A stretch of 64,000 nucleotides of DNA from a virus, in the UHGV virus genome UHGV-0293664; one strand, given 5' to 3'. Numbering within the stretch: the first letter of the stretch is position 1; each line of letters begins with the position of its first letter. The notes beneath the pieces were generated by a model. The model did no database searches. It was not told the DNA's origin and saw only the letters and a list, made by a program, of their open reading frames with translations. Position numbers and translations under genes: made by a program. This document shows, in pieces, positions 5,318 through 24,429 of the stretch.

Positions 5318-6808
5318 GTGGCTAAGTATGGATTGACAGAGGCTGGTTTCGTTATACCAACCCTAAATGACCTAATCGTTGAAACTAAGCAAAGCCTGAT
5401 CCGTGCTTTTGGCGAAAACTTCAACGTACAGAGTAACTCCGTTGCAGATAAGCTGACCACTATCTTCAACGAGCGAGAGTATCAACTTATTCTTATGGCA
5501 GCATCTGTATACGCATCACAGACGCTGTATGGGGCAGAAGGTATTTACCTGGATGAGCTTCTTGGAAGACAAGGTATTTACCGAAGAGGCCGTTCTAAAT
5601 CATCAGGTACCTGCCAGTTGACAATCAACACAACTGTGCCGTACAATATGATTTACGATTCCAAAACTTACACACTGGACAGTGGGAACTTTGTTCTTAG
5701 CAATGACGTGCAGGTAGCGGGAAATCTTATTGCTCATAGGATAAACGCTCCAGATCTAAGAATTGGGAAATACAACTTTCAAATTACCAACCAGACAGAT
5801 GGAAGTATCAAAACAAAAAGTCTGGTTTTAACAGATAAGGCTCTGGACTCTTCTGATCTGCCAAGCTTTTACGGAGAGATTAAGCAGTTCATTGTCGATA
5901 ATACAACCCTGTTGAACGACGATTTGATTCAGATCGATATGTTGACAGGAACGTTGTGGATAGGGTACAATTCGAATCTTGATCAAGTTGGACTTAATAG
6001 TAGAGTAGATTTCAGGGTATCCCCGATTGTAGGGGAAAGAACTATTACCCTGGATGTTATCGCTAACGAGGCTGGTGAGCTGTCAAGAGAGGCAGAAACC
6101 GTGACAACAATGTCGCCTACTCCCAGCGGATTTATCAAACTCACCAACCGAGAAAGATTCAATGAGGGTAGGGATGTTGAGAAAGACTCAGAGTATCGCT
6201 TAAGAGCTTCCAGCACAAAACAGTTAACATCTAAGGCTACCCGTCCTGCAATCCTTAGCGCTGTAAGCGAGGTGAAAGGTGTTGAGAAAGTGAGAGTGTT
6301 CTCCAACAACACCGATAAAACTGATGCTAAAGGTATACCTCCTTACAAGTTCCAAGTGGTTGTGTTTGGTGGTGCAACGGAAGACATTTGCCAAGCACTT
6401 TACCAAACTATAGCCTGCACGAACAGGACTTATGGTAATATTTTCTACGATGTCACTACATCTGACGGTCAAACTGAAAGAATTTATTACTCCAAGGCAA
6501 ATACCTACCGCCTAGATGTAAGAATTACCTACTCCGGTGCTGCGCTTTCCACAACCGAAAAAGATGCCATTACAGAGGCCCTTTTGCATGTTGTTAACGG
6601 ACTAGATGTTGCAGATACGTTGTACAATATCCAATTGGTCGGTGCTGCATCTGCTGCTGTGTCGATAGGCAGATTTAATAGACTGGTAATTCAAGTTAAA
6701 CCAGTAGGAGCTTCTGATGAAGCTTACACTACAAACGATATTGTTGCGAACATGACCGAGGTGTTTGACCTCGACGAAAGTAATATAACTTTCCAACAAA
6801 CTATTTAA
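5318..6808 (+). CDS. Tail/baseplate structural protein
   Basis: 496 aa; GTG start with GGAGGAG RBS; located in tail module. Confidence 0.5.
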   Translation: MAKYGLTEAGFVIPTLNDLIVETKQSLIRAFGENFNVQSNSVADKLTTIFNEREYQLILMAASVYASQTLYGAEGIYLDELLGRQGIYRRGRSKSSGTCQLTINTTVPYNMIYDSKTYTLDSGNFVLSNDVQVAGNLIAHRINAPDLRIGKYNFQITNQTDGSIKTKSLVLTDKALDSSDLPSFYGEIKQFIVDNTTLLNDDLIQIDMLTGTLWIGYNSNLDQVGLNSRVDFRVSPIVGERTITLDVIANEAGELSREAETVTTMSPTPSGFIKLTNRERFNEGRDVEKDSEYRLRASSTKQLTSKATRPAILSAVSEVKGVEKVRVFSNNTDKTDAKGIPPYKFQVVVFGGATEDICQALYQTIACTNRTYGNIFYDVTTSDGQTERIYYSKANTYRLDVRITYSGAALSTTEKDAITEALLHVVNGLDVADTLYNIQLVGAASAAVSIGRFNRLVIQVKPVGASDEAYTTNDIVANMTEVFDLDESNITFQQTI

Positions 6809-6819
6809 GGCGGCGAGAT

Positions 6820-7506
6820 ATGGCAGAGATTAAGTCGGATGTTAACCACATCCACACTCTGCCAGATTTTGTTCAGGGAGGTCTTGACTACCTGCCTGGA
6901 GATTTTCTGGCTGAGAAGGTTAATTTAGTCACATTCTTAACCGTGTACCTTAAAAGGTTGGAGGATGTTGATAAGATGCTGGTAGGTTTGGCTGAAGGAA
7001 GATTGCTTAACAATGCCAGCGGAAGATACCTTGACGAGGTTGGTAATCAACTTGGTATTCTTAGGAATGGACTTTCAGATGCTGATTTTCGTGCCACACT
7101 AATTATTCAGCAGGCCGCAGCATCAAGGGGCGGGACTCGCGAAGATGTCATCTCCACCTTGCGACAATTGTTCGGAAGAGACAATTTCGATACGTGGAAA
7201 GGAGACAACTTCCGGTTTGACATAAATATTAGAAAAACTTGCTTTGACATATTGCAGTCTATCGATCAGATCTTAGATATGCTACCATTGCCTTGTCATT
7301 TGCGTCTTACAGAATCGCAAGGGCAAGCTTTTGGTTTTGAAGGGGACTCTACAGCTCTTGGCTTCGGATCAGTGTGGGAAGAAAACCAATTCGGAGTTGG
7401 TGGGCTGGCTACTTTGCTGTATGTTCCTGACGTAAGACCTGATTGGGACACCACAACCATTTATTGTGAAAGTATTACAGTAAACGCAACTAGACAGGAG
7501 GGTTAA
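6820..7506 (+). CDS. Tail/baseplate structural protein
   Basis: 228 aa; RBS present; stop/start coupled to next gene. Confidence 0.5.
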   Translation: MAEIKSDVNHIHTLPDFVQGGLDYLPGDFLAEKVNLVTFLTVYLKRLEDVDKMLVGLAEGRLLNNASGRYLDEVGNQLGILRNGLSDADFRATLIIQQAAASRGGTREDVISTLRQLFGRDNFDTWKGDNFRFDINIRKTCFDILQSIDQILDMLPLPCHLRLTESQGQAFGFEGDSTALGFGSVWEENQFGVGGLATLLYVPDVRPDWDTTTIYCESITVNATRQEG

Positions 7507-9578
7507 TGGCAACAGCTGTTTTTAAACCTTACCGTGATTACTCTACAATGGCTGCACAGTTTCATTACCGCACAGTTCAGGATACTGCCGTTCCTGGTAG
7601 GGATTATGATCATGTTGAGGGCGATGTAACTATCCCAGTCGGGGCAACCAGTATTGAGATTCCGGTGGAAATTGTTGACAAATTGCCCAACAGATTGCCA
7701 AGAAGCTTCTTTATGGAGTTTTCATCAAAATCTCAAGGGGTGATGATTGGGACACAAAGGGCGAAATGTACAATAGTTTCAGATGAGAATCTTGACAGGA
7801 TATCTTGGGATACTGTCGAGGAGAGAATGTTCCACCCAAGATATTGGGTTACAAATACTCAGCAGACTGAAAGTACCTGTATTGTTGCAGATAACAACTG
7901 TTGTATTAACCGTTTAGTGTCAAGAACATATGGAGGTGTGGCTGGGTGCATTTGGGAAACAGTTGACAAGTATGACCATTTCGGTATTGGGTTTGATGAT
8001 CACTATGAGATGAGAAACACCAAGCTTTGGTTCAGAATGTCAATAACCAACGCCAGCAACTTCTCCACTCCTGAAAAGATGATTATGACTGTAGACCTTG
8101 TTGATGGCACAATCATCTATGTTCCTTTAGCTCAATATGCTGTCAGCATCTCAGAGGATAAGAATGTTGCAGAAATTCATATTGATTTTGAGGACTGCGT
8201 CGGGATGGACCAGAACAACAACATGATGGGTGTTGATCCTCGGCAGGTGAGAAGGATTTTAATACCGCTCATGCCTAAAGACTGGGTAAGTAATAGCACA
8301 GACCCGAGAACGGAAAATGTAGAGTGTGAGTTGCGCCTAGATTTGCTTCAGCCAGACACAGGCTGGAAAATGATGCAACTTAACAATATTCAGGTGAGAG
8401 AGCACGACGTTGGGATCTGCACCGCATATGACGATATGTGGAACGTATCTCCTTTAAGGGTGTTGAACAATATCAAGCGTCTGGGCTATACCGGAACCAT
8501 AAACCATTATGTTGGTATGAGTCATTATTATGACTACACATGGTCAGGAACCCAATGGTCTATAAACAGAACAGGAGCGCTAAACGCTGCAGCTTATAAA
8601 TGGCATGATGATTTTATGTACAATGCCAAACGACATAACTTCGACGTTATGCAATCTGTAAGTTTTGAGCTTTTCAGCGATGCCTGCCCGTTGGAATGGA
8701 CCCAAAGAGACTGGAACGATAACTATGCTAAAACAGGCTATACGCCTTGTAGTTACCTCCTATCTCCAACCATTGAAGAGGGTATGAATTTCCTTACTGC
8801 AGTATTTAAGAATTTTGCATCAGCCGCTATGAGAAACAATCTGCCAGTGATTATGCAGATTGGTGAACCGTGGTGGTGGTTCAATACCGATACTCGTAAG
8901 CCTTGTATTTATGACTACCCTACAAAACAGGCGTTTTATGATGAGACTGGTGAATATGCACTAGACATTGGGACTATTGACGATCCTAAAACTGGCGGTG
9001 TTTATGACAAGTATGTAGCATTTTGTCGTGGTAAGCTTGGCGCTCGTATTGCGGCTATTTCAAAGGCAATAAAGGCACACGCTGCATCAGCTCAGATGAC
9101 AGCTCTGCTGTTTTTCCCAACCATTATGGAAACCGAGCTTACGCAAAAGCTGAACCTTGCTGACCAATATAAAAAAGAAGCAGGTGCTCTTGATTTCTTC
9201 TGCACTGAGTGCTACGATTGGGTGATGCAGGGAGGTATTGAAAAGGCAAAAGAGTCTGTAAACATACCTATCGTTAAGTTAGGTTGGCAACCGTCTGAAA
9301 TACAATACCTTGCAGGGTTCGTTCCTAGCAAAGAGCTTGCTCCGGTATATGGCTACGACCCAACCAGGAATTACCAAGAATTTTTATGGAGATGTATCTG
9401 CGGAAACATGGCAACCATAGAGTATAGATACCCTGAGGTAAAACAGTATGTGTGGGCATACCCGCAAGTAATGTCTGACAGCATCACTGTTACCGCTAGG
9501 GATTCTACCGTGCTTCATATAGGGCAGGTTGCTCTGAAAGGGTATGTAGAAGATGTTGTCCCGCCAGACTTCTCATAA
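7506..9578 (+). CDS. Tail/baseplate structural protein
   Basis: 690 aa; ATGA-type coupling with upstream gene. Confidence 0.5.
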   Translation: MATAVFKPYRDYSTMAAQFHYRTVQDTAVPGRDYDHVEGDVTIPVGATSIEIPVEIVDKLPNRLPRSFFMEFSSKSQGVMIGTQRAKCTIVSDENLDRISWDTVEERMFHPRYWVTNTQQTESTCIVADNNCCINRLVSRTYGGVAGCIWETVDKYDHFGIGFDDHYEMRNTKLWFRMSITNASNFSTPEKMIMTVDLVDGTIIYVPLAQYAVSISEDKNVAEIHIDFEDCVGMDQNNNMMGVDPRQVRRILIPLMPKDWVSNSTDPRTENVECELRLDLLQPDTGWKMMQLNNIQVREHDVGICTAYDDMWNVSPLRVLNNIKRLGYTGTINHYVGMSHYYDYTWSGTQWSINRTGALNAAAYKWHDDFMYNAKRHNFDVMQSVSFELFSDACPLEWTQRDWNDNYAKTGYTPCSYLLSPTIEEGMNFLTAVFKNFASAAMRNNLPVIMQIGEPWWWFNTDTRKPCIYDYPTKQAFYDETGEYALDIGTIDDPKTGGVYDKYVAFCRGKLGARIAAISKAIKAHAASAQMTALLFFPTIMETELTQKLNLADQYKKEAGALDFFCTECYDWVMQGGIEKAKESVNIPIVKLGWQPSEIQYLAGFVPSKELAPVYGYDPTRNYQEFLWRCICGNMATIEYRYPEVKQYVWAYPQVMSDSITVTARDSTVLHIGQVALKGYVEDVVPPDFS

Positions 9579-9590
9579 TCAGGAGATAAA

Positions 9591-10631
9591 ATGTCAAAAC
9601 CTAGTTTTCCATTAGAGATTTGGGCAGAGGAGGATCAGGTTCTGCCTAACACCCACAGACAGAACAGGCTACGCCCGATTGATGATTTGTGGAGAAAAGG
9701 TTGGGATCTTGGTCAAAAGCCATCCTGTGAAGAACTTAACTATATTTTCAATATGCTCGGGACTTGGGCAAAATACATTGCTGACGAGCAGATCCCCGCT
9801 CAAGAAGGCCGCTATCTGGTACGTGATAATAACTTGAGTGATCTTTTAAACATCCCTGTTGCCCGTAGAAACCTTGGAATTATTACTAAGGAAGAGGCAG
9901 ACGCCAGGTATGTAAAAGTTACAGGTGATACAATGACAGGCCCATTGGGTTTGCAACGTATCAACTTTAAAGCTGCCGAGACAGATAAGGCTTGGATAGA
10001 GACAACTATTGGCCCAGATAAGACAACTCTTGACTTTGGGTTAAGTGATAATATTGGGGCGTTCGATGATGGTGGCACATCTACAGTGGATGCGTTCCGT
10101 TGGAGATTCCAGCCAACTCAGCCGGACATTAATCCAGAGTTCACTTTAATGTACCTGAACGCAATCACGGCTAATCGTGCGTTGTTGAAAGTGGTGGGCA
10201 ATGTTGAAGTTGTTGATAACATGCGGTGTAATAACCTCACCATTAGTAGCACAGCAACATTCACTAACTGCAATGTAGCCAGTCAGTTGACAGCTGGGTC
10301 AGTATATGTCAATGGCGGTGCAAGTTGTGATAGTATGGTTGTAAGAAGCCAGCATTGTGTTGTCGGTAACAGAAATGTGGTGCGCTCTGTGAATGGAGTG
10401 ACGGCTAACGGCAACGGCGATGTAACGATCACCATCCCACAGACAGGTGTACAGGATATCAGAATCGGTGCAAGACTTGTTGATGGCGTTTCTGAATCTC
10501 CAATCCGCAACGGATACGTTGTCACAGGTTGGCATTTTGGTGACAAAAAAGAGATGCGTGGTTCAACTTACTGGGCAGGACCTTTACAAAAACTTGTAAA
10601 TGGTCAATGGATCACTGTTAATTATGCATAG
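9591..10631 (+). CDS. Tail fibre / receptor-binding protein, paralog A
   Basis: 346 aa; N-term MSKPSFPLEIWA and C-term KLVNGQWITVNYA shared with 11646..12689. Confidence 0.65.
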   Translation: MSKPSFPLEIWAEEDQVLPNTHRQNRLRPIDDLWRKGWDLGQKPSCEELNYIFNMLGTWAKYIADEQIPAQEGRYLVRDNNLSDLLNIPVARRNLGIITKEEADARYVKVTGDTMTGPLGLQRINFKAAETDKAWIETTIGPDKTTLDFGLSDNIGAFDDGGTSTVDAFRWRFQPTQPDINPEFTLMYLNAITANRALLKVVGNVEVVDNMRCNNLTISSTATFTNCNVASQLTAGSVYVNGGASCDSMVVRSQHCVVGNRNVVRSVNGVTANGNGDVTITIPQTGVQDIRIGARLVDGVSESPIRNGYVVTGWHFGDKKEMRGSTYWAGPLQKLVNGQWITVNYA

Positions 10632-10645
10632 ATCGGAGGACTAGC

Positions 10646-11230
10646 ATGAAAATACTTCAAGAGTTTAAACTTTACCAACCGGGATCTGGCGAATACCACG
10701 CCAACAAGGAAACCAAGGAGCTGACCCCTCAAGAGGTTGAGGACTACACCGCATACACTGGGTATTTTTTACGTAATGATGATGGCGATTGGTATGTGCA
10801 GTCACGAACATTACGACAAGAAAATCCGGGTTGTATCTTCCTACTTGTTGACGAGAAAGGAATTCTTAAGACATCTACAGAAGAACCTGATGCCTTATGG
10901 CCTGCTCCAGGTCTTCGTGTGGTTATCGCCAAAAAAGAAGAGGTACCAGAAAACATTATGCTTCACCACGACGCTTTGCGTTTAGTTGGTGATGAATTTG
11001 TCACAGATAATGAATTCTTTGTTCAACAGGCAGAGGGTGTCATAGAGACAGAACTTGCTTGGGCTACTGCTAGACTTGGTGCCTATCAAGACATGATTGA
11101 CCTTGAATATGATCTTACTGATGACCAGAAACGTAACATCAGAGATTTGAAAATGTACAGGGTAAAACTTCTTGAAATAGATACATCTAAAGCCCCTGAC
11201 ATTTTCTTCCCGGAGCGACCTACCCTCTAA
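10646..11230 (+). CDS. Hypothetical protein, possible fibre accessory/chaperone
   Basis: 194 aa; RBS GGAGGA; between the two fibre paralogs. Confidence 0.45.
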   Translation: MKILQEFKLYQPGSGEYHANKETKELTPQEVEDYTAYTGYFLRNDDGDWYVQSRTLRQENPGCIFLLVDEKGILKTSTEEPDALWPAPGLRVVIAKKEEVPENIMLHHDALRLVGDEFVTDNEFFVQQAEGVIETELAWATARLGAYQDMIDLEYDLTDDQKRNIRDLKMYRVKLLEIDTSKAPDIFFPERPTL

Positions 11231-11241
11231 GAGGAGGTGTT

Positions 11242-11556
11242 GTGGAGTTGGATTTGGCGGCATTGTACGGTATCTGTATGGGTACCGTTGTCCCGATCTG
11301 TGTATGGGCTTTCAACCAGTGGCACACCAAATGGAAAGGCATTTCCCAGAGGTTGGATGAACTGGAGAAAGACCTCATCTTAGTGAAAAATAGTATGGTT
11401 ACAAAAGATAGACTTGATTCCGTTATCGAGACCCGGTTAAGCAAGCTAGAGGCCGATATTAACGACCTTAAGCAGGATGTCAGGACAGATGTCTCCGGCA
11501 TCCGAGCTGATGTACAAAAGATTTTGCACATGCTCGTAGAGCATAGTAAAAGGTAA
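11242..11556 (+). CDS. Small membrane-anchored coiled-coil protein
   Basis: 104 aa; GTG start; N-terminal hydrophobic helix then heptad-like region. Confidence 0.45.
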   Translation: MELDLAALYGICMGTVVPICVWAFNQWHTKWKGISQRLDELEKDLILVKNSMVTKDRLDSVIETRLSKLEADINDLKQDVRTDVSGIRADVQKILHMLVEHSKR

Positions 11557-11564
11557 ACAAAGGT

Positions 11565-11600
11565 CAGAACGGAAAGGACTCCGTTCTTGCATTTTGTTCT
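11565..11600 (+). terminator. Rho-independent terminator
   Basis: CAGAACGG...CCGTTCTT stem followed by T-rich tract. Confidence 0.6.
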
Positions 11601-11645
11601 CTAAAGTGTTAAAATAGTCCTAAGGAATTTTCTCAGGAGAACGCG

Positions 11646-12689
11646 ATGACTAAACCAGTTATCCCTCTTGATATTTGGGCCAATCAGGATGTTGTGCTTG
11701 AAAATACGGGAGAGTTGAATAAATCTCAACCAAAAAAAGAAGAGAGATTGAAAGGTTGGGATATGACACAAAGAATGGCATGTGAAGTTGTTAACTTTGA
11801 ACTTCACATGCTTTCTGCGTGGTTGAAGCATTTAACAGAAGATGTTGTCCCAGGATGGGATAATAGATTCTTAAGGGTCACTAATAACCTAGCAGACGTT
11901 CCAGACAAAGCTGCTGCACGTCAAGTTCTCAATGTATACTCACCTGAAGAAATGGACGATCTATATGTTGACAAGTCTGGAGACATAATGACTCAGACTC
12001 AAACTTTAGGTCTTCAAAGAATCGAGTTTGCATCTGCGTCAACAGACAGTGCGGCAATATACACCACCATAACTCCAGACAAGACGACGATGGATTTCTG
12101 GATTATGGACAACATCGGTGGTGCTGACGGCACAGACCTTGATGATCCTTCTCACCAAATAGACGGGTTCCGTTGGAGATTTCAACCTTCTGGTGGGCAG
12201 CCTGTGTTTTCGGCTATGAAGCTCAATGCTATAACTGCCAACCGTGCAAGACTGGCTATCCAAGGAAATCTTGAATGTAACGATGCAAAAAGTTCCTCTG
12301 CAAATGCCAATGCGGTCACGATACCAAGAGCCACTGTTAACGGACAACAATCCTGCGGAAGCGCTCAAATAGGTGGAAGAGTTGATTGTAACGATGAAAC
12401 CGTTAGGGGCCAATATGCAACCGTTGGTGGAAGAAACGTGGTCCGCAGGGTAAATGGTAACAGCGCAGACGGTAGTGGTAACCTTACTATCCCTATGCCT
12501 AGCAGAGGGGTTGATGATGTAAGGATAGCGAACCGTTTCAAAACCACCTACAGAGAGTCAAGAGTCTACCCTGGACATGTGATGTGCTCTGGTAACTACG
12601 CCTATAAACACCCTTATCAAGGTGATTACTGGACAGGTGCTATCCAAAAACTTGTAAATGGTCAATGGATCACTATATCTTATGCTTAA
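11646..12689 (+). CDS. Tail fibre / receptor-binding protein, paralog B
   Basis: 347 aa; N-term MTKPVIPLDIWA and C-term KLVNGQWITISYA shared with 9591..10631. Confidence 0.65.
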   Translation: MTKPVIPLDIWANQDVVLENTGELNKSQPKKEERLKGWDMTQRMACEVVNFELHMLSAWLKHLTEDVVPGWDNRFLRVTNNLADVPDKAAARQVLNVYSPEEMDDLYVDKSGDIMTQTQTLGLQRIEFASASTDSAAIYTTITPDKTTMDFWIMDNIGGADGTDLDDPSHQIDGFRWRFQPSGGQPVFSAMKLNAITANRARLAIQGNLECNDAKSSSANANAVTIPRATVNGQQSCGSAQIGGRVDCNDETVRGQYATVGGRNVVRRVNGNSADGSGNLTIPMPSRGVDDVRIANRFKTTYRESRVYPGHVMCSGNYAYKHPYQGDYWTGAIQKLVNGQWITISYA

Positions 12690-12700
12690 AAAGAGGGTAA

Positions 12701-12967
12701 ATGAAACTAACTCAGTTTTTATGGGGACTGGTTGCGGCATCTGATGACCCTACGAAAGTGTCCCAATCTAAGCTATGGTCGAACATAGGTATGGCGGTGA
12801 TGACTGGGGTGTTTATTCATATGGGGTATAATGATACGCTTCCTGAATGGTATGCGTGGATATACGCGCCTTCAGTAGCTTGCCCCCAGCTTATTAGCAA
12901 ATTCATCTCGCTCCGGTGGGGTTGCCAGCACCCTGACCACGTTAAAAACGAAGAGCAAAAAGCTTAA
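12701..12967 (+). CDS. Small membrane protein
   Basis: 88 aa; two or three hydrophobic segments; RBS AAGAGGG. Confidence 0.45.
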   Translation: MKLTQFLWGLVAASDDPTKVSQSKLWSNIGMAVMTGVFIHMGYNDTLPEWYAWIYAPSVACPQLISKFISLRWGCQHPDHVKNEEQKA

Positions 12968-12976
12968 GGAGAAATC

Positions 12977-14722
12977 ATGGCGCAAGACATGACAAGCTTT
13001 GAGCAGGCGGTAGATCAAGTAATTGTTGATTCTGAACGTTTGCACCTGATTGTCAACGGTAACGCTGTGGATGAAGTTGTCGTAGAGGATGGGACCACCA
13101 TCCCTACGGTACGAAAAGCCATGCTTGACACCCTTTATTTTAAAACGCCACCGATCCCTTGGGCGTATGGTGCATCCACAACAGTTTTTAACCAGCTGTA
13201 CGAGTTTAAGGGGGACACAGGCCCTCAGTGGTGGTACGCTCCCGCAGCATCAAAATCTAACCCGGTTAGAATGCCAGCAGATCCTTCACAATCTCCAAAC
13301 TGGAGATTATATACAGATTCTGCAGTAATGGCAAAATACTACGCAAAACTTAACAGTCCGAGGTTCGAAGGTGACCCGCGAGTACCGACACCTCCAATGG
13401 ACGACAAATCCGAGTCTATAGCAAACACAGAGTTTGTTGTTGACTACGTGGATAGCATATTTGAAGCCATGGAGGGGATGAAAGTTACTGTAGGGTCTTT
13501 GGTGGTAAAAGGTCTTACAGAACTTGCTAACACCATAGTTGGTGGCACACTCACCCTACATGGGCCTGTTAATGGAGCAGATTCTACTGCACGCTTCAGG
13601 AACCTAATCCTCACGGCAAACACTTCTACACTTACTTTTGCGTGGAGCGATCCTAAGCATGCAGACTGGAGAAGTACAGAGCTGCAGCCTCATGAAGTGT
13701 CCACCCACAGGATTATAGCTGACACTATAACTTCTGGGAAACCAGTGGCTAATAATAACGATGTGCATTTTGATGGTCTAGGTAATAACTTTTTTGACTA
13801 CGTGTACATTCGTGGTAATGCCATGAAGGCAGCAACCGAACCGACATTGCAGGTAGATGGAACCACCAGGGTTAAGAACCTTGAGGTGACAGGTACTGTT
13901 ACAGGAATAACCTACTCTGTCGATGGCACCATGATCTACCCTAGCTATATTGAAAGCACGGGGGACGCATTAATAAATGGTGATTTAGAAGTTGGCGGAT
14001 CTGTAGTTATTCGAGGTACAGCCTCTATCCAAAACATAGCTCTGAATACCTTAAGAGTCAATGAGCGTGCAACTTTTGAAGGAGAAGGGCTTGCAGCCAA
14101 TAAAGGTACAATTACCGAGCTGACCACCACCACTCTAACTGCAACAACTGCAAACTCTGAAAACTGCAACGTTACCAGAAACTTGCAGGTAAATGGGGAT
14201 GTTAGTTTAAACGCAGCAGGTACTGGCACCACCTACCTGCACAACCTTGAAATATCCGGCACAGTGACTGGGTGGCTGCCAGACTTCTCTAATGTCAACT
14301 TTGTTTGTAATGGCATTAACTCTAGCGGTAAGATAACCACCTCTCAAGGAATTGAAGCTGGTAAAACCATTACTGCCCCTACTTTCCACGCAGGGAAGGT
14401 AGATTTTGATTTAGAGGAGGTTGACGCGTCCAGTGGGACATGGACACCTAACGGGCAGGCCAGTATGTATGTTGTCCACGCGAAAGGGGATTTTACAATA
14501 GGACAGTGGCCTGGGACATCAGCGGAAGATAAACCTTATCCATTCACTGCAGTTATCTATGTAATTCAGGATGCTGTAGGTCACAACGTGACTTTGCACG
14601 ATAAGTATGCCATCCTGTCGGCAACACCTGTTATTAACAACAAGGCTAACAGTGTTACCTTGCTGCAATTAACGTATTGTGGTGTTGGTGATATTGTAGA
14701 CGTAGTAATTGCACAACGTTAA
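12977..14722 (+). CDS. Tail fibre or tailspike protein
   Basis: 581 aa; Thr/Gly/Asn-rich repetitive beta-type sequence. Confidence 0.55.
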   Translation: MAQDMTSFEQAVDQVIVDSERLHLIVNGNAVDEVVVEDGTTIPTVRKAMLDTLYFKTPPIPWAYGASTTVFNQLYEFKGDTGPQWWYAPAASKSNPVRMPADPSQSPNWRLYTDSAVMAKYYAKLNSPRFEGDPRVPTPPMDDKSESIANTEFVVDYVDSIFEAMEGMKVTVGSLVVKGLTELANTIVGGTLTLHGPVNGADSTARFRNLILTANTSTLTFAWSDPKHADWRSTELQPHEVSTHRIIADTITSGKPVANNNDVHFDGLGNNFFDYVYIRGNAMKAATEPTLQVDGTTRVKNLEVTGTVTGITYSVDGTMIYPSYIESTGDALINGDLEVGGSVVIRGTASIQNIALNTLRVNERATFEGEGLAANKGTITELTTTTLTATTANSENCNVTRNLQVNGDVSLNAAGTGTTYLHNLEISGTVTGWLPDFSNVNFVCNGINSSGKITTSQGIEAGKTITAPTFHAGKVDFDLEEVDASSGTWTPNGQASMYVVHAKGDFTIGQWPGTSAEDKPYPFTAVIYVIQDAVGHNVTLHDKYAILSATPVINNKANSVTLLQLTYCGVGDIVDVVIAQR

Positions 14723-14729
14723 TATATCT

Positions 14730-14757
14730 AACCGCTCCTGACGGGGCGGTTTTCTTA
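14730..14757 (+). terminator. Rho-independent terminator
   Basis: ACCGCTCC-TGAC-GGGGCGGT hairpin followed by TTTTCTT. Confidence 0.75.
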
Positions 14758-14770
14758 TCTGGAGAACACA

Positions 14771-17700
14771 ATGCTTCCAATCCCTTTGCTAAAACTTGGT
14801 CGTCATTTCCTCGATAAGAGGGGTGGAATTAAGGAACTTGCTGTTCTGTCATACCCAATAGACAACAGTGATGGCACAAGCACTACAGTATCCTATGTAA
14901 ATAGTTTAGCTATACTTTTTGATGATGGTCAACTCAATATCACGGGCTATAACAGGTTCGGAGAGTGCCGCACTGGGGGTCTTGACACGATAAACTACCC
15001 CAACGAGGCTGCCTGGAACGTTGATCATGTGTGGAGAGCAGACCGTGCGTTTGTGATCCGAACTTTTGATAACCAGTTTTTCTACATCGGCTGCACTGCA
15101 GGGCTTATTGGGTCTGATGCTGCAGGCGGTAATGATGTTTGTGTAAGAGAGTGGACACCTCTTCCTGAACAGATCGTTAAAGGGTTGCACCTTGACACCC
15201 ACCCAGAGCGCCTTATTGAAGTAATGGGCGGTATTAACAACACTATCTGGGTTATTGCAGAGGCAGAAGGCACTGGCATACTTAACCTGTATGGATCTGG
15301 TAACAACACCTACGGATCTTTGCATGTAGATAAAAATCAGCATGCAACCCCTGTAAAGATCGGTGAGACATCGGAAAATCCTGAAACAGGCCCTTGGAAA
15401 AACCCAAGCATCAACTGCGAGGTGCATGACAACTCTGTTATTTTCGGTGGTCCTAGAGGTTTCTGGATTGCTGGATACGACTTTCTGAGAAATAACAGTA
15501 GAAACGATCTTGTTTGGCCTCCTGTGCAGATTACTCGTAACGATTTGAGGGGCATTCCTGCAGATGAGGAGTGGAAAGGGTTTATGTGTGGTCCTAACGG
15601 GGCAATAATTGCCACACAGAGGATGCATAGACCCGATGACCAGCAGCTTGTTAACGTATTCTACGGGCAAGACGTTTGGGGAGATGACACATGGCGTTCC
15701 TTAAATATCACCTACACCCATGAGGTAATAATGGCTCGTGGGTACGGCACAAGTGGCATTTTCTTCAATAATGGCACTAAGCAGTATCGTGGATTCTCTC
15801 GCAACTTGTGTAATGATATTGGCGCACAATCTGCAAACAATAGCCCTAGGGCCAATTTTATCCACTATCAAGCTCTTGCTACAGCTAAATATGTTGAGCA
15901 ACGCCTGCCAGTTAGCTGGACAGAGAGTGTTTATTTCCAAGGCATCCACAGGGAAGGTTTCTTAGGAACCTTTACTGTTGTTAATGGTAAACTTTGGTGG
16001 TCAGGCATCCCAAGGGGGAGTTTTGCAGGCTCTAACAACCTGTTTGGCGGCAGACTTAATAGTCAGGGGTTCACAGAGGTTCCTGAGAATTGGTATAAAA
16101 ATGTCCCAGTAGACAGTTGGGATGTTGATGATATTTTCGACGTTAACGGTGTTAGCAGCGTTAGCAATATTTACATTGGTGACACGGTCAAGATGAAATT
16201 GAAGCCTCAGCCAGAAGGGGCTACGTTCATTATTGACAAGATTGAACTGGTAAATGCTGCAGGCACGGTTGTTACAGATGCAAATTACCAATTCTCCACC
16301 AACTGGAACCACGGCGGGGCCAATGAAGTTGTTGTTACCCAGTATAACAGAAATGTTAACAGACGTGGCCTGTACTCTGTAAAAATAACTTATCATGACA
16401 AGCATGGCACAGGCAGAACCCATACGACAAGGACTTTGAACTGGAACACCATAGTTCCTGCGTATCCGTCTAACGGCAAGTGGCATACCGTTGGTAGAAA
16501 CAAGCAGTTCCATGTTAACGATACTGTATACTTTGGGCTGAATGGTACTCAGCCTGCAGTAGAAGGTGATACATCATATATGGTCCGACTCCACAGAATG
16601 GATGCTGGATCAGTCACTTACGATGTTACCCAAGAGATTTATGATCAGAGAAGAAATACCTACAACAACTTGGTGCAGACACAGGCCGTATGGGAGTTCA
16701 ACCCTAACGGCAGAGGTGGTAAAATGTTGCAGGTTAACGAGCAAAACGGAACGTCGTTAACTGTCCACAAACACCCAGACCCTTGGCCTGATCCTGGAAA
16801 ACCTCACCCAGGCGCTCGTACGCTGAAAATTGTCAGCCATGATGTAGGATATTTCGGAATACGCTGGGAAGCTACAGTAAGGTATGCCGACGGGACAACA
16901 AACAACATAGGGATTACACTTGGTGGCACCAGTGAAGATAACTCGCTGAAAATTGCCTACACTCCTAGAGGTATATCTATTGACAATATGGATGTTGTTC
17001 GCAATGGTTACGGCGATGTGAATGTCAAAGTTACTCTTGGCGAACATCTTGGTGGGGAAAGGATCATCATGTATGCTTTTGATCATGACCCGCGTACCAA
17101 CGGAACTTATGCAAATCAGGCATGGAGTTACCTGATAAATGCACCTGGGCCGAATACTAAAGAGTTCTACTACGGCATGAAGCGAGATGTGTGCAAGAAA
17201 ACAGGAACACATGACTGGATTGCTATCTGCGTTAAAGATGAGCGCACAGCTTGGGATGAGCCTGTTAACAGATGGTTCATAGGTATTCCTACCAGAAGTG
17301 ATAAGTATGTCGCAGAATATATTGTATGCATGGGCGGTACCAACCTGAACATGTGTTGGAACGAGGATGCAAACAAATACTCTGATTATGACTATATGAG
17401 GGACTACTCTTGTAATCAGTGGTTTAACCAATCAACAGGATACCCTCCACGTCAGGCGAGAGTAAACCCTGCAATCTTCACAGATACGCAGGTTTTCTTG
17501 ACAAAACAGGCCAACAAGGTTCAGACCTTCAAGAATAAATACGATCCTAACAAGTGGTTCTACAACTGTTACGGCGCATTTTTCTGGGGACCTGGTGAGT
17601 TACCTGGTGGAGGATCTTGCTTGAATGAGGCAACTTACGCCAGTGACTACATCATGGGGCAGGTCAAGAAGTATAAGATAATCCCCGGTCCTGAGACTCT

Positions 17701-20398
17701 GGGCAATGCCGTTGACCCTTATATCATCATGACTGCACTGAGATCAAACATGGACGGGACATCCATGTCTATGCAAATTCCGGTAACAAACGGGTACAAA
17801 CGTGTTGTGATGATCATTAAGTGCGACTTAATAGGTAAACAAGTTCTTGCAGAAAACGGGACATCCACACATCCTTTTGAGATTGCTCTGCACTATCAGT
17901 TTGCTGACTCGCCTTTTGCAGGTGATAAGAGAATATCTGATACAGATGCACAGCGTTGTAAGAAAGTATTGTTGGGTGCAGGTTGGTGGTGGTATGAGTT
18001 TGATTTAACAGACAAATTCACCGACACGTCTAAAGTTGTAACAGGACTTCGTCTAGACCTTGGCGAGAACATGCACAAAGCTGTTTGTGATGGCACCTAT
18101 GGTGACCCTACAATATACCTAAAATATATTTCTTTTGAGCATCCGGAAGATGTTGTCTACGGTCCAAAACTGAGATTGTTTGGCAGTTGGATTGCAAAAG
18201 ATAGGGTAGGCATGGGTAAGAAGGTGAGAGGGTTCTTGGTTGATGCAGGAACAGAAGACATGCTGGTTAATGCAGTATGGCCTGAATTACCTGGGACTCA
18301 GTGGAACAACTCAGCCAAATCTATAAACTGGTTTAACATCCACAGGGCTATGTGGACCACTAACTGCTACTTGTGGAGAGAGCTTAACGATCAGGCTTTT
18401 GGCTTCAGTGATGGCAGGAGGATGGCGATCATTTGCTGGACAACGCTGCAAAGATGCTATGACCATGACTACGAGATTGGTGGTAGGGCATGGAAAAATA
18501 TCAGGGACAGAATCATAACCAATTTTGCAGACGACAACGGTGGTGGAGCACATAACTTTGGCACAAGCCGACTTATCCATTTGAATGGATCCTCGGCCTA
18601 CAAGAAAGAAGGTTACTCAGGGTCCATGATCGAGTGGGGTCTGGTGAAAGATGCTCGCGTATTGATGGGCCAGCAACTTGCTGCCGCAATAGGCCCAAGC
18701 GCAGTGCAGTCGGTTAAACCAGCGTGGTTCGATATCCCATTGTGGTCACCAGGAACACCGGGAACTGCTGCAATCAACCCTACCACTGGGGATCTAGAAA
18801 TATCCTGGGAGGACTTGAAGCAGGTCGGTGGTTGGGATAAAACGGGGTATCAGGTCCAGTGGTGGAGGGCTGATGGATCTTTAGCCTCTGATGAGTTTGT
18901 TAAGGACAATTTCTACACCATGTCCTCTGCAAAAGCACAGCAATTATTTGGTCAGGCCACTCCGTCAACGATCACCATGTCTATGTGCTGTAAAGACAAC
19001 AGGACTGGAGCTTTGGGGCCAAGGGTTGCTAAGGTTTTCTCAGGTATTAAATGGAATCTCCCTGTTCAAAGTGTTTCATGGAAGCAAATAGGTGATAACA
19101 AGCTGCTGGTTACCCCTGCCTGTCAGTTCAACGCAACTCTTAACGTTGATCCTGCTGTTGCGGCAAACTCAGCTAAAGCTTCTGACTTCTCTGTGTCTAA
19201 CACTGCTATGGCAGATGTGAGGAAGATTGACACACTGAACGCCAGAATTACCTGTAAAAACACTTATGGCACATTCCAAATCATCAACAACTTCACAGAT
19301 GCTGATTCTAAGGTAGTAAGGACAGCAAGCCAGACTCTGAGTTTAGGGACTCTGGCCTATGCGGCCCTGATCACCGAACAGTCGGCAACACTCCAAGGAG
19401 GCGGTGTAGGCAAGTCCATTGCAACACCTGTGTGGAAGCCGAATGAGTGGGTTGTGTTTGATTTGACTGTGGACTTCTCCAGTGATAATAACTGGACATG
19501 GGTAAGGAATTGTTTGTCACAGTTGATGGGCGGTCCAAGCTCCATTAGCGATAGTCACGACTCTACTGACCCGAGCGTGTTCCAGGTGGGTAAAACTCAC
19601 CCAGAGACTGGAGAAACGTTGCCTGACAGGAAGTATGCTTTGGTTTGCATCTCTTACGGGAAGGCAGATGTCACCTTCTCAGGGACACACACTTATAACG
19701 GAACCTACAACTTCTCAAGGAAGTATAGTCTCAAAGCAGGGAACATTGTAGACGAGGTTGGTGTGCTGTATAATCCAGGTAACGGCATAGGGATTGTGGG
19801 TGGTCAACTGCAGATGCAGGAACCTTCTATTACACCTTCCAACGTATCCGGGATTAGAAAGACTTGGGAAAGTAGTAATACCAACATTGCAACAGTGGAT
19901 GCCACCACAGGACTGGTAACATTTAAAGCCACTGGGAATGTCACCATAAAGTTTGTAGTTACAGATGATGCAGGCCGCAAAACGTCTTCAACATCATTCA
20001 CTGTCAAACAGATGGCACCTCAGTGGTTTATTTGGGAAGGAAATCCTCTTGACGGGGCTTACCCTAGACCTGCAGGAACGTCTAATATGAGGGTCTTTAC
20101 CGGTCCGGTCATGAACAATCCGACCACAACCACCAACCCTACATTTTTTGGTGCTTACATACCTGAAATCATTGGCCTACCAAGGAACCAGATACAACTG
20201 CTTTTCGGAGCAGGTGTTGATGGTCTAGCCACCTTTGGGTACAGTGACAACATTGATGCAGCCAGAAGCTCGGGTTGGATTGGATTTAAGTTCCAGTGGA
20301 ACCCTGGTGGTAGAACATTAGGTCTTGCAAGCATAGGTGTTATGCTACCTGGTAACCAGCAATACCATCTCGAAGCTTATACAAACTTCCCTAGTTAA
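14771..20398 (+). CDS. Giant tail fibre / adhesin-like structural protein with Ig-like domain
   Basis: 1875 aa; Trp/Asn/Gly-rich; Big_2-like segment near residue 1700 (TGLVTFKATGNVTIKFVVTDDAGRK). Confidence 0.6.
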   Translation: MLPIPLLKLGRHFLDKRGGIKELAVLSYPIDNSDGTSTTVSYVNSLAILFDDGQLNITGYNRFGECRTGGLDTINYPNEAAWNVDHVWRADRAFVIRTFDNQFFYIGCTAGLIGSDAAGGNDVCVREWTPLPEQIVKGLHLDTHPERLIEVMGGINNTIWVIAEAEGTGILNLYGSGNNTYGSLHVDKNQHATPVKIGETSENPETGPWKNPSINCEVHDNSVIFGGPRGFWIAGYDFLRNNSRNDLVWPPVQITRNDLRGIPADEEWKGFMCGPNGAIIATQRMHRPDDQQLVNVFYGQDVWGDDTWRSLNITYTHEVIMARGYGTSGIFFNNGTKQYRGFSRNLCNDIGAQSANNSPRANFIHYQALATAKYVEQRLPVSWTESVYFQGIHREGFLGTFTVVNGKLWWSGIPRGSFAGSNNLFGGRLNSQGFTEVPENWYKNVPVDSWDVDDIFDVNGVSSVSNIYIGDTVKMKLKPQPEGATFIIDKIELVNAAGTVVTDANYQFSTNWNHGGANEVVVTQYNRNVNRRGLYSVKITYHDKHGTGRTHTTRTLNWNTIVPAYPSNGKWHTVGRNKQFHVNDTVYFGLNGTQPAVEGDTSYMVRLHRMDAGSVTYDVTQEIYDQRRNTYNNLVQTQAVWEFNPNGRGGKMLQVNEQNGTSLTVHKHPDPWPDPGKPHPGARTLKIVSHDVGYFGIRWEATVRYADGTTNNIGITLGGTSEDNSLKIAYTPRGISIDNMDVVRNGYGDVNVKVTLGEHLGGERIIMYAFDHDPRTNGTYANQAWSYLINAPGPNTKEFYYGMKRDVCKKTGTHDWIAICVKDERTAWDEPVNRWFIGIPTRSDKYVAEYIVCMGGTNLNMCWNEDANKYSDYDYMRDYSCNQWFNQSTGYPPRQARVNPAIFTDTQVFLTKQANKVQTFKNKYDPNKWFYNCYGAFFWGPGELPGGGSCLNEATYASDYIMGQVKKYKIIPGPETLGNAVDPYIIMTALRSNMDGTSMSMQIPVTNGYKRVVMIIKCDLIGKQVLAENGTSTHPFEIALHYQFADSPFAGDKRISDTDAQRCKKVLLGAGWWWYEFDLTDKFTDTSKVVTGLRLDLGENMHKAVCDGTYGDPTIYLKYISFEHPEDVVYGPKLRLFGSWIAKDRVGMGKKVRGFLVDAGTEDMLVNAVWPELPGTQWNNSAKSINWFNIHRAMWTTNCYLWRELNDQAFGFSDGRRMAIICWTTLQRCYDHDYEIGGRAWKNIRDRIITNFADDNGGGAHNFGTSRLIHLNGSSAYKKEGYSGSMIEWGLVKDARVLMGQQLAAAIGPSAVQSVKPAWFDIPLWSPGTPGTAAINPTTGDLEISWEDLKQVGGWDKTGYQVQWWRADGSLASDEFVKDNFYTMSSAKAQQLFGQATPSTITMSMCCKDNRTGALGPRVAKVFSGIKWNLPVQSVSWKQIGDNKLLVTPACQFNATLNVDPAVAANSAKASDFSVSNTAMADVRKIDTLNARITCKNTYGTFQIINNFTDADSKVVRTASQTLSLGTLAYAALITEQSATLQGGGVGKSIATPVWKPNEWVVFDLTVDFSSDNNWTWVRNCLSQLMGGPSSISDSHDSTDPSVFQVGKTHPETGETLPDRKYALVCISYGKADVTFSGTHTYNGTYNFSRKYSLKAGNIVDEVGVLYNPGNGIGIVGGQLQMQEPSITPSNVSGIRKTWESSNTNIATVDATTGLVTFKATGNVTIKFVVTDDAGRKTSSTSFTVKQMAPQWFIWEGNPLDGAYPRPAGTSNMRVFTGPVMNNPTTTTNPTFFGAYIPEIIGLPRNQIQLLFGAGVDGLATFGYSDNIDAARSSGWIGFKFQWNPGGRTLGLASIGVMLPGNQQYHLEAYTNFPS

Positions 20399-20410
20399 CA
20401 AGAGGAAAAT

Positions 20411-20440
20411 AAAAAGGGGCCGTTTGGCCCCTTTCTTTTT
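20411..20440. terminator. Bidirectional rho-independent terminator between convergent operons
   Basis: A-run, GGGGCC-GTTT-GGCCCC hairpin, T-run. Confidence 0.8.
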
Positions 20441-20444
20441 ATAA

Positions 20445-20645
20445 TTAGTAATATTCCCAACACGACCCATCTTCAGACGGCTGGACACGCTTACCTTCAT
20501 GATCGACATAGGTGTAACCACAGCCTTCACAGATAACAGGTGCCGCATAACCTTCCTTCCACTGCTTCTCCGTGATCAATCCTTTCAGATCTCCGCAGTC
20601 ACGACCAAACAACTCTTCAGAACAGTCTTTACAAAAATCAGCCAT
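20445..20645 (-). CDS. Small zinc-ribbon-like protein
   Basis: 66 aa; CxxC...C...CxxC pattern. Confidence 0.45.
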   Translation of the reverse strand: MADFCKDCSEELFGRDCGDLKGLITEKQWKEGYAAPVICEGCGYTYVDHEGKRVQPSEDGSCWEYY

Positions 20646-20714
20646 CTCTATCAGTCTCCATATTTAACCAATCTGTATTACATATTGCCGAAGAAACAGT
20701 ATTTCATTTCATCA

Positions 20715-20933
20715 TTACAGATCTCCAACAACTTCCCAAATACCCCAGTGAGCATCCATATCCTTGATAAAGTATCTTTCTCCACGGTTTGTCCACACAC
20801 CTATCCCAACTTTACCATCTATCCCATTGTATACATCTGCCTCATACTCTTTGCCCGGTGTAAAGTGTACACCCATCATAAGGGCTGTTATTCCGTTAGG
20901 ATTTTTAAATTTAACAAATTTTACTTTGCTCAT
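20715..20933 (-). CDS. Small hypothetical protein
   Basis: 72 aa; shares IKDxDxxWG-type motif with small proteins near the polymerase gene. Confidence 0.45.
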   Translation of the reverse strand: MSKVKFVKFKNPNGITALMMGVHFTPGKEYEADVYNGIDGKVGIGVWTNRGERYFIKDMDAHWGIWEVVGDL

Positions 20934-20934
20934 A

Positions 20935-21264
20935 TTACTTAATCCTTGCAGTTACAGTAGCGCTATACCCCATGTAGTTATGAGACATAAAGAATGTAAG
21001 CCCTTTAAGTTCAGGATTCTTTCTAAGAAATCGTTTCAATTTTCGAATGCAATTAACACCATGATCATAGTTTGAGAAATTAAATTTAATACCCTGCTCT
21101 ATCATAGTGCACACTTCTTCATGGGTATGCCATTGTCTATCGTGGTCACAAAACCAGTAACCAATACTTTCTTTTTCTTGGATATGCAACCCCCAAAATA
21201 CTTTATGCATTGGATATTTTGGTTTTCTACCATGATAATGTAGTTTAATATTCACATGTGCCAT
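20935..21264 (-). CDS. Hypothetical protein
   Basis: 109 aa; His/Cys-rich; 1-nt gap to downstream gene. Confidence 0.45.
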   Translation of the reverse strand: MAHVNIKLHYHGRKPKYPMHKVFWGLHIQEKESIGYWFCDHDRQWHTHEEVCTMIEQGIKFNFSNYDHGVNCIRKLKRFLRKNPELKGLTFFMSHNYMGYSATVTARIK

Positions 21265-21434
21265 TTTTTTGTTACTCCGTTCTGTATCTGTGATAATGAG
21301 AATAGCAAACTGGAGTGTGTGCTGTCAACAACATTTTTTAAGCGTTTTGGGGAAGTTTTTTGAAAGGTGGGTGTAATCACAAGAGGGGGTAGAGTTATTG
21401 AAGGCACAGGCCTCGTTTGAGGCCTTAAAACAGA

Positions 21435-22112: not shown

Positions 22113-22117
22113 GGCTC

Positions 22118-22582: not shown

Positions 22583-22584
22583 AT

Positions 22585-23484: not shown

Positions 23485-23486
23485 GA

Positions 23487-24428: not shown

Positions 24429-24429
24429 A

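Follow-up and report, generated by a model that had tools for sequence, protein, structure and literature searches.

Few broad-host-range coliphages are isolated as often as those related to rV5, which find use in both biocontrol and therapy. The terminal step of receptor recognition in these phages is assigned to short tail fibers, of which there are two paralogs, gp33 and gp30. What the second paralog contributes to the virion is the question raised by positions 9,591 to 12,967 of a 64,000-nucleotide stretch of the virus genome UHGV-0293664 (hereafter the window). A sequence-only reading had described here two paralogous receptor-binding fiber genes with a different set of small accessory genes behind each, and had proposed a dual-receptor or host-range cassette. 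The feature is real but was already known. In rV5, gp33 and gp30 were recognized in 2013 as paralogs, were found in virions by mass spectrometry (MS), and were suggested to address two LPS chemotypes (PMC3606486). The BASEL study of 2021 described two paralogous short tail fibers (STFs) and a chaperone, homologous to Mu GpS/GpU (PMC8594841). The rV5 and BASEL Vequintavirus phages carry the same locus as the window, with nothing materially different in sequence, and rediscovery adds nothing because the feature had been published. A per-domain map of divergence between the fibers, the replacement of a 157-aa gene, and a terminator and promoter-like site ahead of the second fiber gene were not found in the published accounts of the locus consulted here.

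Gene order and conservation of the locus

Judged by its sequence, the window carries the tail-fiber module of an rV5-like Vequintavirus coliphage. At the DNA level it shares 97-98% identity with rV5-like Vequintavirus phages (97.7% for Bas49), and positions 6800-14800 are covered by 111 phage records at 95-99% identity. All five open reading frames claimed for the locus are present on the + strand, encoding proteins of 346, 194, 104, 347, and 88 aa, with the gene order and sizes of rV5 gp33/gp32/gp31/gp30/gp29; annotations of relatives give two copies of a "short tail fiber protein" and a "tail fiber chaperone." The first fiber gene, F1 (9591..10631, +, PHROG 4465), is the orthologue of rV5 gp33 (99% protein identity). 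It is followed by a Tfa tail fiber assembly chaperone gene (rV5 gp32 orthologue; 10646..11230, +, Caudo_TAP) and by a gene with a GTG start whose 104-aa product (rV5 gp31; 11242..11556, +) is a type-II, coiled-coil-containing membrane protein, identified by its transmembrane (TM) segment and homology. The second fiber gene, F2 (11646..12689, +, PHROG 4465), is the orthologue of rV5 gp30 (about 98% protein identity) and is preceded by a Shine-Dalgarno sequence, AGGAG, at 11635-11639. An 88-aa small protein annotated "membrane protein" (rV5 gp29; 12701..12967, +, PHROG 1322) closes the locus. Upstream (6820..9578, +) lie genes for a 228-aa baseplate wedge protein (rV5 gp35) and then a 690-aa fiber (rV5 gp34). 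The former is the positional equivalent of phi92 gp146, and the latter is an NCTSP/N4 gp65-like fiber. Downstream (12977..14722, +) lies the gene for a 581-aa tail fiber, rV5 gp28, of the phiTE gp241 family.

Both fiber genes are stably maintained. Every one of about 116 Vequintavirus records has both, with identity never below 95% for F1 or 90% for F2; F2 falls to 78% and 49% identity only in deeper, uncultured lineages. Values of dN/dS (0.024 for F1, 0.056 for F2) indicate purifying selection on both. Neither copy is a pseudogene or a chance open reading frame, possibilities ruled out by intactness, conservation in more than 100 genomes, dN/dS of 0.02-0.06, and detection in virions. The idea of a swappable host-range cassette finds no support in the same comparison, since no swapping is seen in the roughly 116 records, dN/dS is low, and repeats of the inversion type are absent; BASEL likewise reports no allelic variation of these short fibers (PMC8594841). 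Allelic swapping within the genus is ruled out by the identity levels just given. An invertible or shufflon-type cassette is also ruled out, both genes being complete and on the + strand without suitable inverted repeats. The two inverted repeats present are short (14-18 nt) and imperfect (78-86% complementary) and flank no fiber tip.

Divergence of the two fibers by domain

F1 and F2 match the PHROG 4465 profile ("tail fiber protein") end to end (F1, 2.3e-171, aa 1-346; F2, 9.9e-167, aa 1-347), and the family profile itself matches the phiTE STF (2.8e-25) and the C-terminus of Mu gpS (1.6e-10). The F1 docking domain, approximately aa 1-100 (nt 9591-9890), lies within a match to the phiTE STF (9cuy_c) at 1.5e-19 over aa 1-108; the corresponding F2 match is weaker, at 1.9e-8 over aa 1-83. 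At the other end, F1 matches Mu gpS (5yvq) at 4.9e-6 over aa 286-343, and F2 alone gives no gpS match in phmmer at E up to 1. In Foldseek, Mu gpS (5yvq_A) is the sole significant match for the AF2 models of both F1 (E 7.8e-7) and F2 (E 2.2e-7); these models are low-confidence monomers (pLDDT 63-64), used only for this fold match and not for loop-level comparison. The description of the pair as paralogous receptor-binding fiber genes is thus borne out by a docking N-terminus of the phiTE STF type and a tip of the Mu gpS type in both, together with the presence of both proteins in rV5 virions (PMC3606486).

Homology between F1 and F2 extends from end to end (44% identity, E 1e-96), with identity distributed unevenly. 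It amounts to 37% over residues 1-100 (the docking domain), 54.5% over 101-204, 19.6% with indels over the shaft segment 205-255, 54% over 256-290, 29% over the tip at 291-331, and 80% over the last 15 residues (332-346). The docking domain and the tip are therefore where the proteins diverge, and conservation is found centrally, in the shaft (54%), and over the final 15 residues. Conserved termini around a divergent middle, as first described, hold in the pairwise alignment for only the first and last 15 or so residues; the longest conserved block is central, and residues 1-100 as a whole reach just 37%. In the DNA, the 3'-terminal 63 nt of F1 (10568..10630, +) match F2 at 12626-12688 with 84% identity, including 30 identical bases that encode QKLVNGQWIT. 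The only other similarity is a second patch of 21-26 nt at 85-90%.

The duplication is old, because the diverged contigs L007 and L010 share the two-copy layout, with orthologous docking domains; its age is taken from this orthology, the F1+F2 clade in a neighbor-joining phylogeny having a bootstrap of just 49.5%. Of the two copies, F1 appears from its sequence to be the conservative one. It stands after the wedge genes with the gp34 fiber between, as in Av-05, and has the chaperone gene immediately downstream. Its Mu gpS-like tip (aa 291-346, nt 10461-10628) carries the motif GYVVTGWHFGDKKEMRG, the canonical form common to single-copy relatives, and is 54-58% identical to Av-05 and phi92-like tips (58.5% to the latter). 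F2 stands after the 104-aa gene with no chaperone gene of its own. Its tip (aa 293-347, nt 12522-12686; motif GHVMCSGNYAYKHPYQG) is confined to Vequintavirus, the next best match being 48%, and has no DNA match among 5,426 complete E. coli genomes. Horizontal import of this tip from another phage or prophage was rejected, with no source found and 48% as the best match outside Vequintavirus.

A dual receptor is plausible, and the 29% identity of the tips would be consistent with it. Alternatively, F1 and F2 may bind the same LPS-core receptor, the second copy giving redundancy or dosage (12 fibers in place of 6, say, or an additional ring elsewhere on the wedge), with tip differences that are neutral or compensate for different geometry. 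We consider this unlikely, though it accounts for several observations. [quoted passage not shown] In the L010 lineage the paralogs' tips are 95% identical and the docking domains only 36%; two copies therefore need not mean two specificities, and the docking end emerges as the part that consistently differs, at about 37% identity in all three lineages. The F2 tip of the window and L007 nevertheless departs from F1 at positions that are near-invariant in F1, Av-05, SSE121, and phi92-like fibers (GW.FG.KKELRG). This derived tip is itself conserved (92.5% identity of the window to L007, and 90% or more in 116 genomes), and neutral drift would not hold a new sequence constant to that degree.

The chaperone, the small genes, and transcription of F2

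The locus has one chaperone gene for two fibers. Its 194-aa product matches Pfam Caudo_TAP (PF02413) above cutoff (7.5e-11, aa 121-192) and PHROG 136 at 1e-35, and rV5 gp32 has been detected in virions (PMC3606486). The view that each fiber is followed by its own accessory genes stands for this protein alone; the 104-aa and 88-aa genes correspond by orthology to the first and third members of a trio, 104/157/88, that follows fiber and chaperone in Av-05, SSE121, GAP31, L011, and phiTE. A single fiber-chaperone pair precedes the trio in Av-05, SSE121, GAP31, and phiTE, and a gp28-type 581-aa tail fiber stands after it in all relatives.

The 104-aa protein is 32-34% identical over its full length to the 104-aa genes of Av-05, SSE121, and GAP31, and matches phiTE_238 at 3e-14 and a phi92-like 113-aa protein at 1e-4. 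It has a strong N-terminal TM segment (Kyte-Doolittle 1.91, 19-residue window, usual TM threshold 1.6); its similarities to XhlA or Rz are weak and fall short of thresholds. The 88-aa protein is 50-56% identical to the 87-89-aa genes of the same three phages and 46% identical to phiTE_240 (5e-31). Its designation as a membrane protein derives from annotation alone (PHROG 1322) and is not upheld by hydropathy; the best 19-residue value, 1.05, is below the usual 1.6. Two of the protein's segments are weakly hydrophobic, and its C-terminus is charged. Searches of Pfam, PHROGs, and PADLOC for a function of either protein gave only sub-threshold coiled-coil, XhlA, or Rz-like matches, and the rV5 supplementary tables hold no usable MS-coverage entries for gp29 or gp31, just "1 TMD" for gp31. 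The window lacks the 157-aa gene, and no relic of it was found there (best tblastn E 0.04). On these homologies, the trio is a membrane-protein cluster ancestral in the Vequintavirinae, with F2 occupying the slot of its middle (157-aa) gene and the 104-aa and 88-aa genes as remnants that are partners of neither fiber.

A terminator had been proposed after the 104-aa gene, and the sequence there has the expected features. A hairpin at 11566-11587, with a T-rich tail to 11597 (+ strand), folds at -16 kcal/mol (z -3.3), with none of 200 shuffles as stable, and its stem is kept by compensatory substitutions in the diverged relative L007. This terminator-like element would close a transcription unit of F1, chaperone, and 104-aa gene. 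It runs into a candidate sigma-70-type promoter for F2 (11587..11615, +) composed of TTGCAT (11587-11592), a 17-nt spacer, an extended -10 TG (11607-11608), and TAAAAT (11610-11615). Both hexamers are invariant in four lineages in which the flanks diverge. The motif TGYTAAAATA occurs three times against 0.49 expected, each time between genes and upstream of a + strand open reading frame. Promoter function upstream of F2 is suggested by these elements; F1 and F2 are likely to lie in separate transcription units, and a transcript beginning at the promoter-like site of F2 seems to cover F2, gp29, and gp28.

This arrangement bears on two further explanations. F2 could be a structural adaptor in a branched fiber network, attached to another fiber instead of the wedge or anchoring gp28, and no longer a primary receptor binder. 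Its weaker docking match to the phiTE STF (1.9e-8 vs. 1.5e-19) and its apparent co-transcription with gp29 and gp28 would fit such a role, as would the contact between the long fiber and the STF in phiTE (PMC11972413) and the densities left unassigned in cryo-EM of Bas49 (PMC12143355). F2 nevertheless retains every part of the STF architecture, the gpS-like fold of the tip and the QKLVNGQWIT motif at the C-terminus among them, and no homology to any known adaptor domain came to light; we regard an adaptor role as quite improbable. The second explanation, that F1 and F2 form heterotrimers and hence one fiber type of mixed composition, is to our minds very improbable indeed. Origin from the same locus, a single chaperone, and the near-matching C-terminal segment (80% in protein, 84% over 63 nt of DNA) could be accommodated by it, but shaft segments 205-255 that are only 20% identical with indels, docking domains at 37%, and likely separate transcription units could not easily be. 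We know of no heterotrimeric gpS-like fiber.

Comparison with known short fibers

Parallels to F1 in post-wedge position, docking N-terminus, and tip are phi92 gp147 with its chaperone gp148 and PaulScherrer bas60_0032/0033. In phi92-like phages the fiber is followed by a Caudo_TAP chaperone and a small TM and coiled-coil protein, as here, but the fiber is single-copy, its shaft is 13-17% identical, and the 157-aa gene, the 88-aa gene, and a second paralog are absent. In phi92, gp147 is fiber III, present as six trimers on the wedge and responsible for irreversible binding and triggering (PMC13450770). The phiTE STF (gp236; PDB 9CUY/9MJN) docks on wedge 1 through residues 3-92 (PMC11972413), and its N-terminal 100 or so residues are homologous to those of F1 and F2. 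The downstream order in phiTE, namely chaperone, membrane trio, and gp241-type fiber, matches that of the window. The phiTE STF differs in its length of 554 aa, long coiled-coil, and Ig-like distal domains, and the phage is flagellotropic with a single copy.

Mu gpS, with gpU/TfaMu (PDB 5YVQ), has a homologous C-terminal tip and also targets the LPS core, and a Caudo_TAP chaperone lies directly downstream of F1. In Mu, S/U and S'/U' tips alternate by inversion of the G segment, whereas the window has two complete genes in the same orientation and one chaperone. T4 gp12 has the role proposed for F1 and F2 (LPS-core binding, irreversible adsorption, and baseplate triggering); its assembly uses gp57A, unlike the Tfa system here. 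HHpred similarity to gp12 was reported for rV5 (PMC3606486), and among the PDB matches of F1 and F2 at E up to 1 there was no gp12 chain.

A model for two short fibers on one virion

We favor the reading that F1 and F2 form two trimeric short fibers and that F2 probably gives the virion another LPS-core-binding activity, distinct from that of F1. The N-terminal domain of each fiber would dock on the baseplate wedge, followed by a beta-rich shaft, and the C-terminal tip would bind the LPS core after folding with the aid of the gp32 Tfa protein, whose use by F2 is an assumption. By analogy with phi92 and T4 gp12, binding would lead to irreversible adsorption and relay to the wedge the signal that sets off contraction of the sheath. 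F1 would provide the canonical tip; single-copy relatives with such a tip are thought to recognize the outer-core Glc I. F2, duplicated long ago and now standing in place of the trio's middle gene, would have acquired a terminator-insulated, promoter-like start, a tip peculiar to its lineage, and a docking domain that evolved along a different path.

Two observations count against a second fiber set. Cryo-EM of Bas49 and Bas54, at 7-9.5 A, shows one STF density class, in Bas49 at low resolution (PMC12143355), and phi92 has only six fiber III sites.

The refinements reported here provide targets for knockout and tip-swap experiments, namely which copy is canonical, which domains differ, the unrelated remnants of the trio, and tip homogenization in a sister lineage. 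A more far-reaching and rather doubtful proposal, offered tentatively, is that F2 has neofunctionalized, with its own docking site, transcription unit, and unique tip, so that each virion would carry two LPS-core specificities, and that lineages toggle between bivalent and monovalent states (the latter as in L010) by gene conversion seeded at the conserved 3' end. If true, such toggling would amount to an evolutionary switch, built into a phage group of therapeutic importance, that sets the breadth of terminal-receptor use.

Short Tail Fiber Genes of the rV5-Like Locus

All five open reading frames proposed in the sequence-only reading were found on the + strand: the fiber genes F1 (9591-10631, 346 aa) and F2 (11646-12689, 347 aa), genes for a 194-aa and a 104-aa protein between them (10646-11230 and 11242-11556), and an 88-aa gene 3' of F2 (12701-12967). 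More than 100 GenBank phages of the genus Vequintavirus, the relatives of rV5, match the surrounding 8 kb (6800-14800) from end to end at 97-98% identity; in the rV5 reference numbering the five genes are, in order, gp33, gp32, gp31, gp30, and gp29. In BASEL, the curated record for phage EmilHeitz labels them, in the same order, "short tail fiber protein," "tail fiber chaperone," "hypothetical protein," "short tail fiber protein," and "hypothetical protein." Between 16 and 21 unannotated GenBank "Campylobacter phage" records in the series MG065635-MG065676, with Campylobacter jejuni given as host, share 97-99% identity with this rV5-like E. coli locus, and some others of the series resemble phi92 or phAPEC8; the host given in these records looks doubtful.

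Paralogy of F1 and F2 is certain, since the proteins align from end to end (44% identity, E = 1e-96) and both match PHROG 4465 ("tail fiber protein") over their whole length. Their description as fibers conserved at both ends and diverged in between is contradicted by the pairwise alignment, in which identity is 37% over residues 1-100, 54.5% over 101-204, 19.6% over 205-255, 54% over 256-290, 29% over 291-331, and 80% over the last 15 residues. At the DNA level the last 63 nt (84% identical) are the sole substantial similarity, apart from a patch of 21-26 nt at 85-90%; this 3' segment includes 30 identical bases, encoding QKLVNGQWIT. The rV5 genome paper called gp30 (347 aa) and gp33 similar short-fiber-like proteins, with 42.3% identity (PMC3606486), and both the two-fiber observation and the dual-receptor idea, a published hypothesis, are already in the literature for this very phage group (2013 and 2021). 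The refinements made here are incremental, namely a domain map, a displaced 157-aa gene, a probable separate F2 transcription unit, and homogenization of the fiber tips in a sister lineage.

The N-terminal ~100 residues, the docking domain, are homologous to the short tail fiber of phiTE (PDB 9CUY/9MJN; 1.5e-19 for F1, 1.9e-8 for F2, and 2.8e-25 for the family profile), residues 3-92 of which form the joint docking the fiber on wedge protein 1 (PMC11972413). Homology to the tip of phage Mu gpS covers the last ~60 residues (4.9e-6 for F1, 1.6e-10 for the family profile). Modeled as monomers with AlphaFold2, F1 and F2 reach a pLDDT of 64 and 63, a low confidence that obligate trimers would lead one to expect, and the two models agree in secondary-structure layout; the sole significant PDB fold match of either low-confidence model is Mu gpS bound to its chaperone (E = 7.8e-7 and 2.2e-7). 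The 194-aa protein, gp32, is a Caudo_TAP tail fiber assembly protein (7.5e-11). Low-resolution cryo-EM of Bas49 and Bas54 resolved one class of short tail fiber density, with a Mu-like C-terminus (PMC12143355). In phi92, which has one orthologue (gp147) compared with the two copies here, this protein is "fiber III," seen by cryo-EM as six trimers under the wedge that swing down upon contraction, with proposed roles in irreversible binding and as the contraction trigger (PMC13450770).

Two genes 5' of F1 also deserve mention. The 228-aa open reading frame at 6820-7506 is labeled "putative tail terminator protein" in BASEL, probably wrongly, since its PHROG match is 4056 ("baseplate protein") and it lies at the position of the phi92 wedge protein gp146. 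The 690-aa fiber (7506-9578) carries Calx-beta, NCTSP_N, and NCTSP TIM-barrel domains (N4 gp65-like) and has been proposed in the literature to bind the ECA/NGR glycan; its gene occupies this position in Av-05 and is absent from Seunavirus, phiTE, and phi92-like loci. Farther along, GC skew and AT skew flip sign over about 20-28 kb (20000-28000), which indicates a minus-strand gene block directly after the tail fiber module.

Small Genes and the Spacer Upstream of F2

Each fiber had been thought to be followed by its own small accessory genes, a view that holds for the chaperone only. Three other genera of the subfamily include relatives with one fiber copy, namely Av-05 (Avunavirus), SSE121 and GAP31 (Seunavirus), and phiTE (Certrevirus), and these, together with an uncultured Seunavirus-like contig, share one gene order: short fiber, chaperone, a membrane protein of ~104-112 aa, a polytopic membrane protein of 152-157 aa, a protein of 86-89 aa, and a fiber of the gp28/phiTE-241 type. 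This membrane trio (about 104, 157, and 88 aa) lies 3' of the short fiber and chaperone at, for example, 5638-6701 and 8228-9305 of two relatives' loci (L003 and L013). The 104-aa (11242-11556) and 88-aa (12701-12967) proteins of the window are full-length orthologues of its first and third members (32-34% and 50-56% identity; phiTE matches at 3e-14 and 5e-31), so neither gene is an accessory of its neighboring fiber. The 157-aa gene (Pfam PF26221, "Phage_phiTE_239") has left no trace within the whole 64-kb window, and F2 sits exactly at the position expected for it. The most parsimonious history from these observations is an ancestral trio whose middle gene gave way to F2 in the Vequintavirus lineage. 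A strong transmembrane segment lies at the N-terminus of the 104-aa protein, which also has weak, sub-threshold XhlA or Rz-like matches. The "membrane" label of the 88-aa protein rests on the annotation of PHROG 1322, as hydropathy finds two weakly hydrophobic stretches (maximum 1.05).

Where the relatives have a 4-nt overlap of the 104-aa and 157-aa genes, the window has an 89-nt spacer ahead of F2 that contains a terminator. This terminator, noted earlier, is credible, with a hairpin at 11566-11587 and a T-rich tail (-16 kcal/mol, z -3.3), and its stem is kept through compensatory substitutions in a relative with diverged flanks. It is followed by TTGCAT, 17 nt, and TG-n-TAAAAT, both elements being invariant in four lineages with differing surroundings. 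Three copies of the extended -10 motif TGYTAAAATA lie in the window (0.49 expected), all of them intergenic and upstream of a + strand gene; the other two (47691-47700 and 59674-59683, +), 25-55 nt upstream of open reading frames, are candidate promoters of the same class. Upstream of the copy at 59674 there is a GC-rich hairpin. Given the terminator-bearing spacer, the invariant promoter-like elements, and the exclusively intergenic motif copies, F2 probably starts its own transcription unit from a putative promoter.

Conservation and Divergence of the Two Copies

Both copies are always present in about 116 sequenced Vequintavirus genomes, with identities of 95% or more for F1 and 90% or more for F2. 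Neither shows any sign of decay among these genomes, with dN/dS against EmilHeitz of 0.024 (F1) and 0.056 (F2). The suggestion of a host-range cassette finds no support, with no sign of cassette swapping in these genomes nor of inversion repeats. The 3' half of F1 (10050-10549) is 90-93% identical to EmilHeitz in nucleotides, compared with 96-100% in its flanks, and dS is 0.256 for F1 versus 0.016 for the chaperone; with an F1 dN/dS of 0.024, the segment resembles a patch acquired by recombination from a different Vequintavirus lineage, with the protein left nearly unaltered.

As judged from sequence, F1 is the conservative copy. It is 48, 46, and 42% identical to three single-copy proteins (F2, 38, 40, and 39%), and its tip motif, G(Y/H)V.TGW.FG.KKE.RG, is common to the fibers of Av-05, SSE121, and phi92-like phages (54-58% tip identity). 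The F2 tip, GHVMCSGNYAYKHPYQG, is found in Vequintavirus only and is 32-39% identical to the Av-05, SSE121, and phi92-like tips. Two deeper lineages in public assemblies, L007 and L010, keep the two-copy layout. Identity to the window is 88% (F1), 78% (F2), and 77% (chaperone) in L007, and 73% (F1), 49% (F2), 49% (chaperone), and 52% (104-aa protein) in L010, where flanking genes are at 63-78%; by these lowest identities F2 and the chaperone evolve fastest. Nothing in the GenBank phage collection corresponds to the uncultured L010 lineage, whose second fiber has a best match there of 49%. The L010 chaperone has 208 aa, and the L010 homologue of the 88-aa protein (6076-6432) has 118 aa, its C-terminus being extended by ~30 residues with many Tyr, Ser, and Asp.

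Docking domains are 75-88% identical between F1 copies and 62-80% between F2 copies of different lineages, and 36-39% between F1 and F2 in every genome; the duplication therefore predates L007 and L010, and the docking ends have been kept distinct. The two L010 tips are 95% identical to each other and 54 and 22% identical to the window tips, so tips have evolved in concert in that lineage. This homogenization is not recent, since DNA identity in the last 269 nt is 75% there; the 63-nt 3' similarity between F1 and F2 of the window, with its 30 identical bases, is a plausible seed for such conversion. The main rival to a second specificity, that F1 and F2 share one receptor and provide redundancy or dosage, is favored by these matching L010 tips and by the single requirement for Glc I on K-12. 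[quoted passage not shown]

Proposed Roles of the Two Fibers

F1 and F2 would be baseplate-anchored, gpS-like trimeric short fibers, binding the LPS core and passing on the signal for contraction. The chaperone gp32, probably shared, would help fold the fiber tips and may stay attached to them as in Mu, since gp32 is found in virions. Protein identities and the history of the locus are demonstrated in this picture; where the fibers dock, the sharing of gp32, the activity of the promoter, and the difference in ligand are inferred. Weaker alternatives are that F2 acts as an adaptor inside the fiber network, or that F1 and F2 form heterotrimers. In the preferred reading of two separate fibers, F1 would retain the ancestral, Glc I-type recognition and F2 would be a duplicate kept with a docking end unlike that of F1 and a derived, conserved tip, which most likely adds a second LPS-core specificity.
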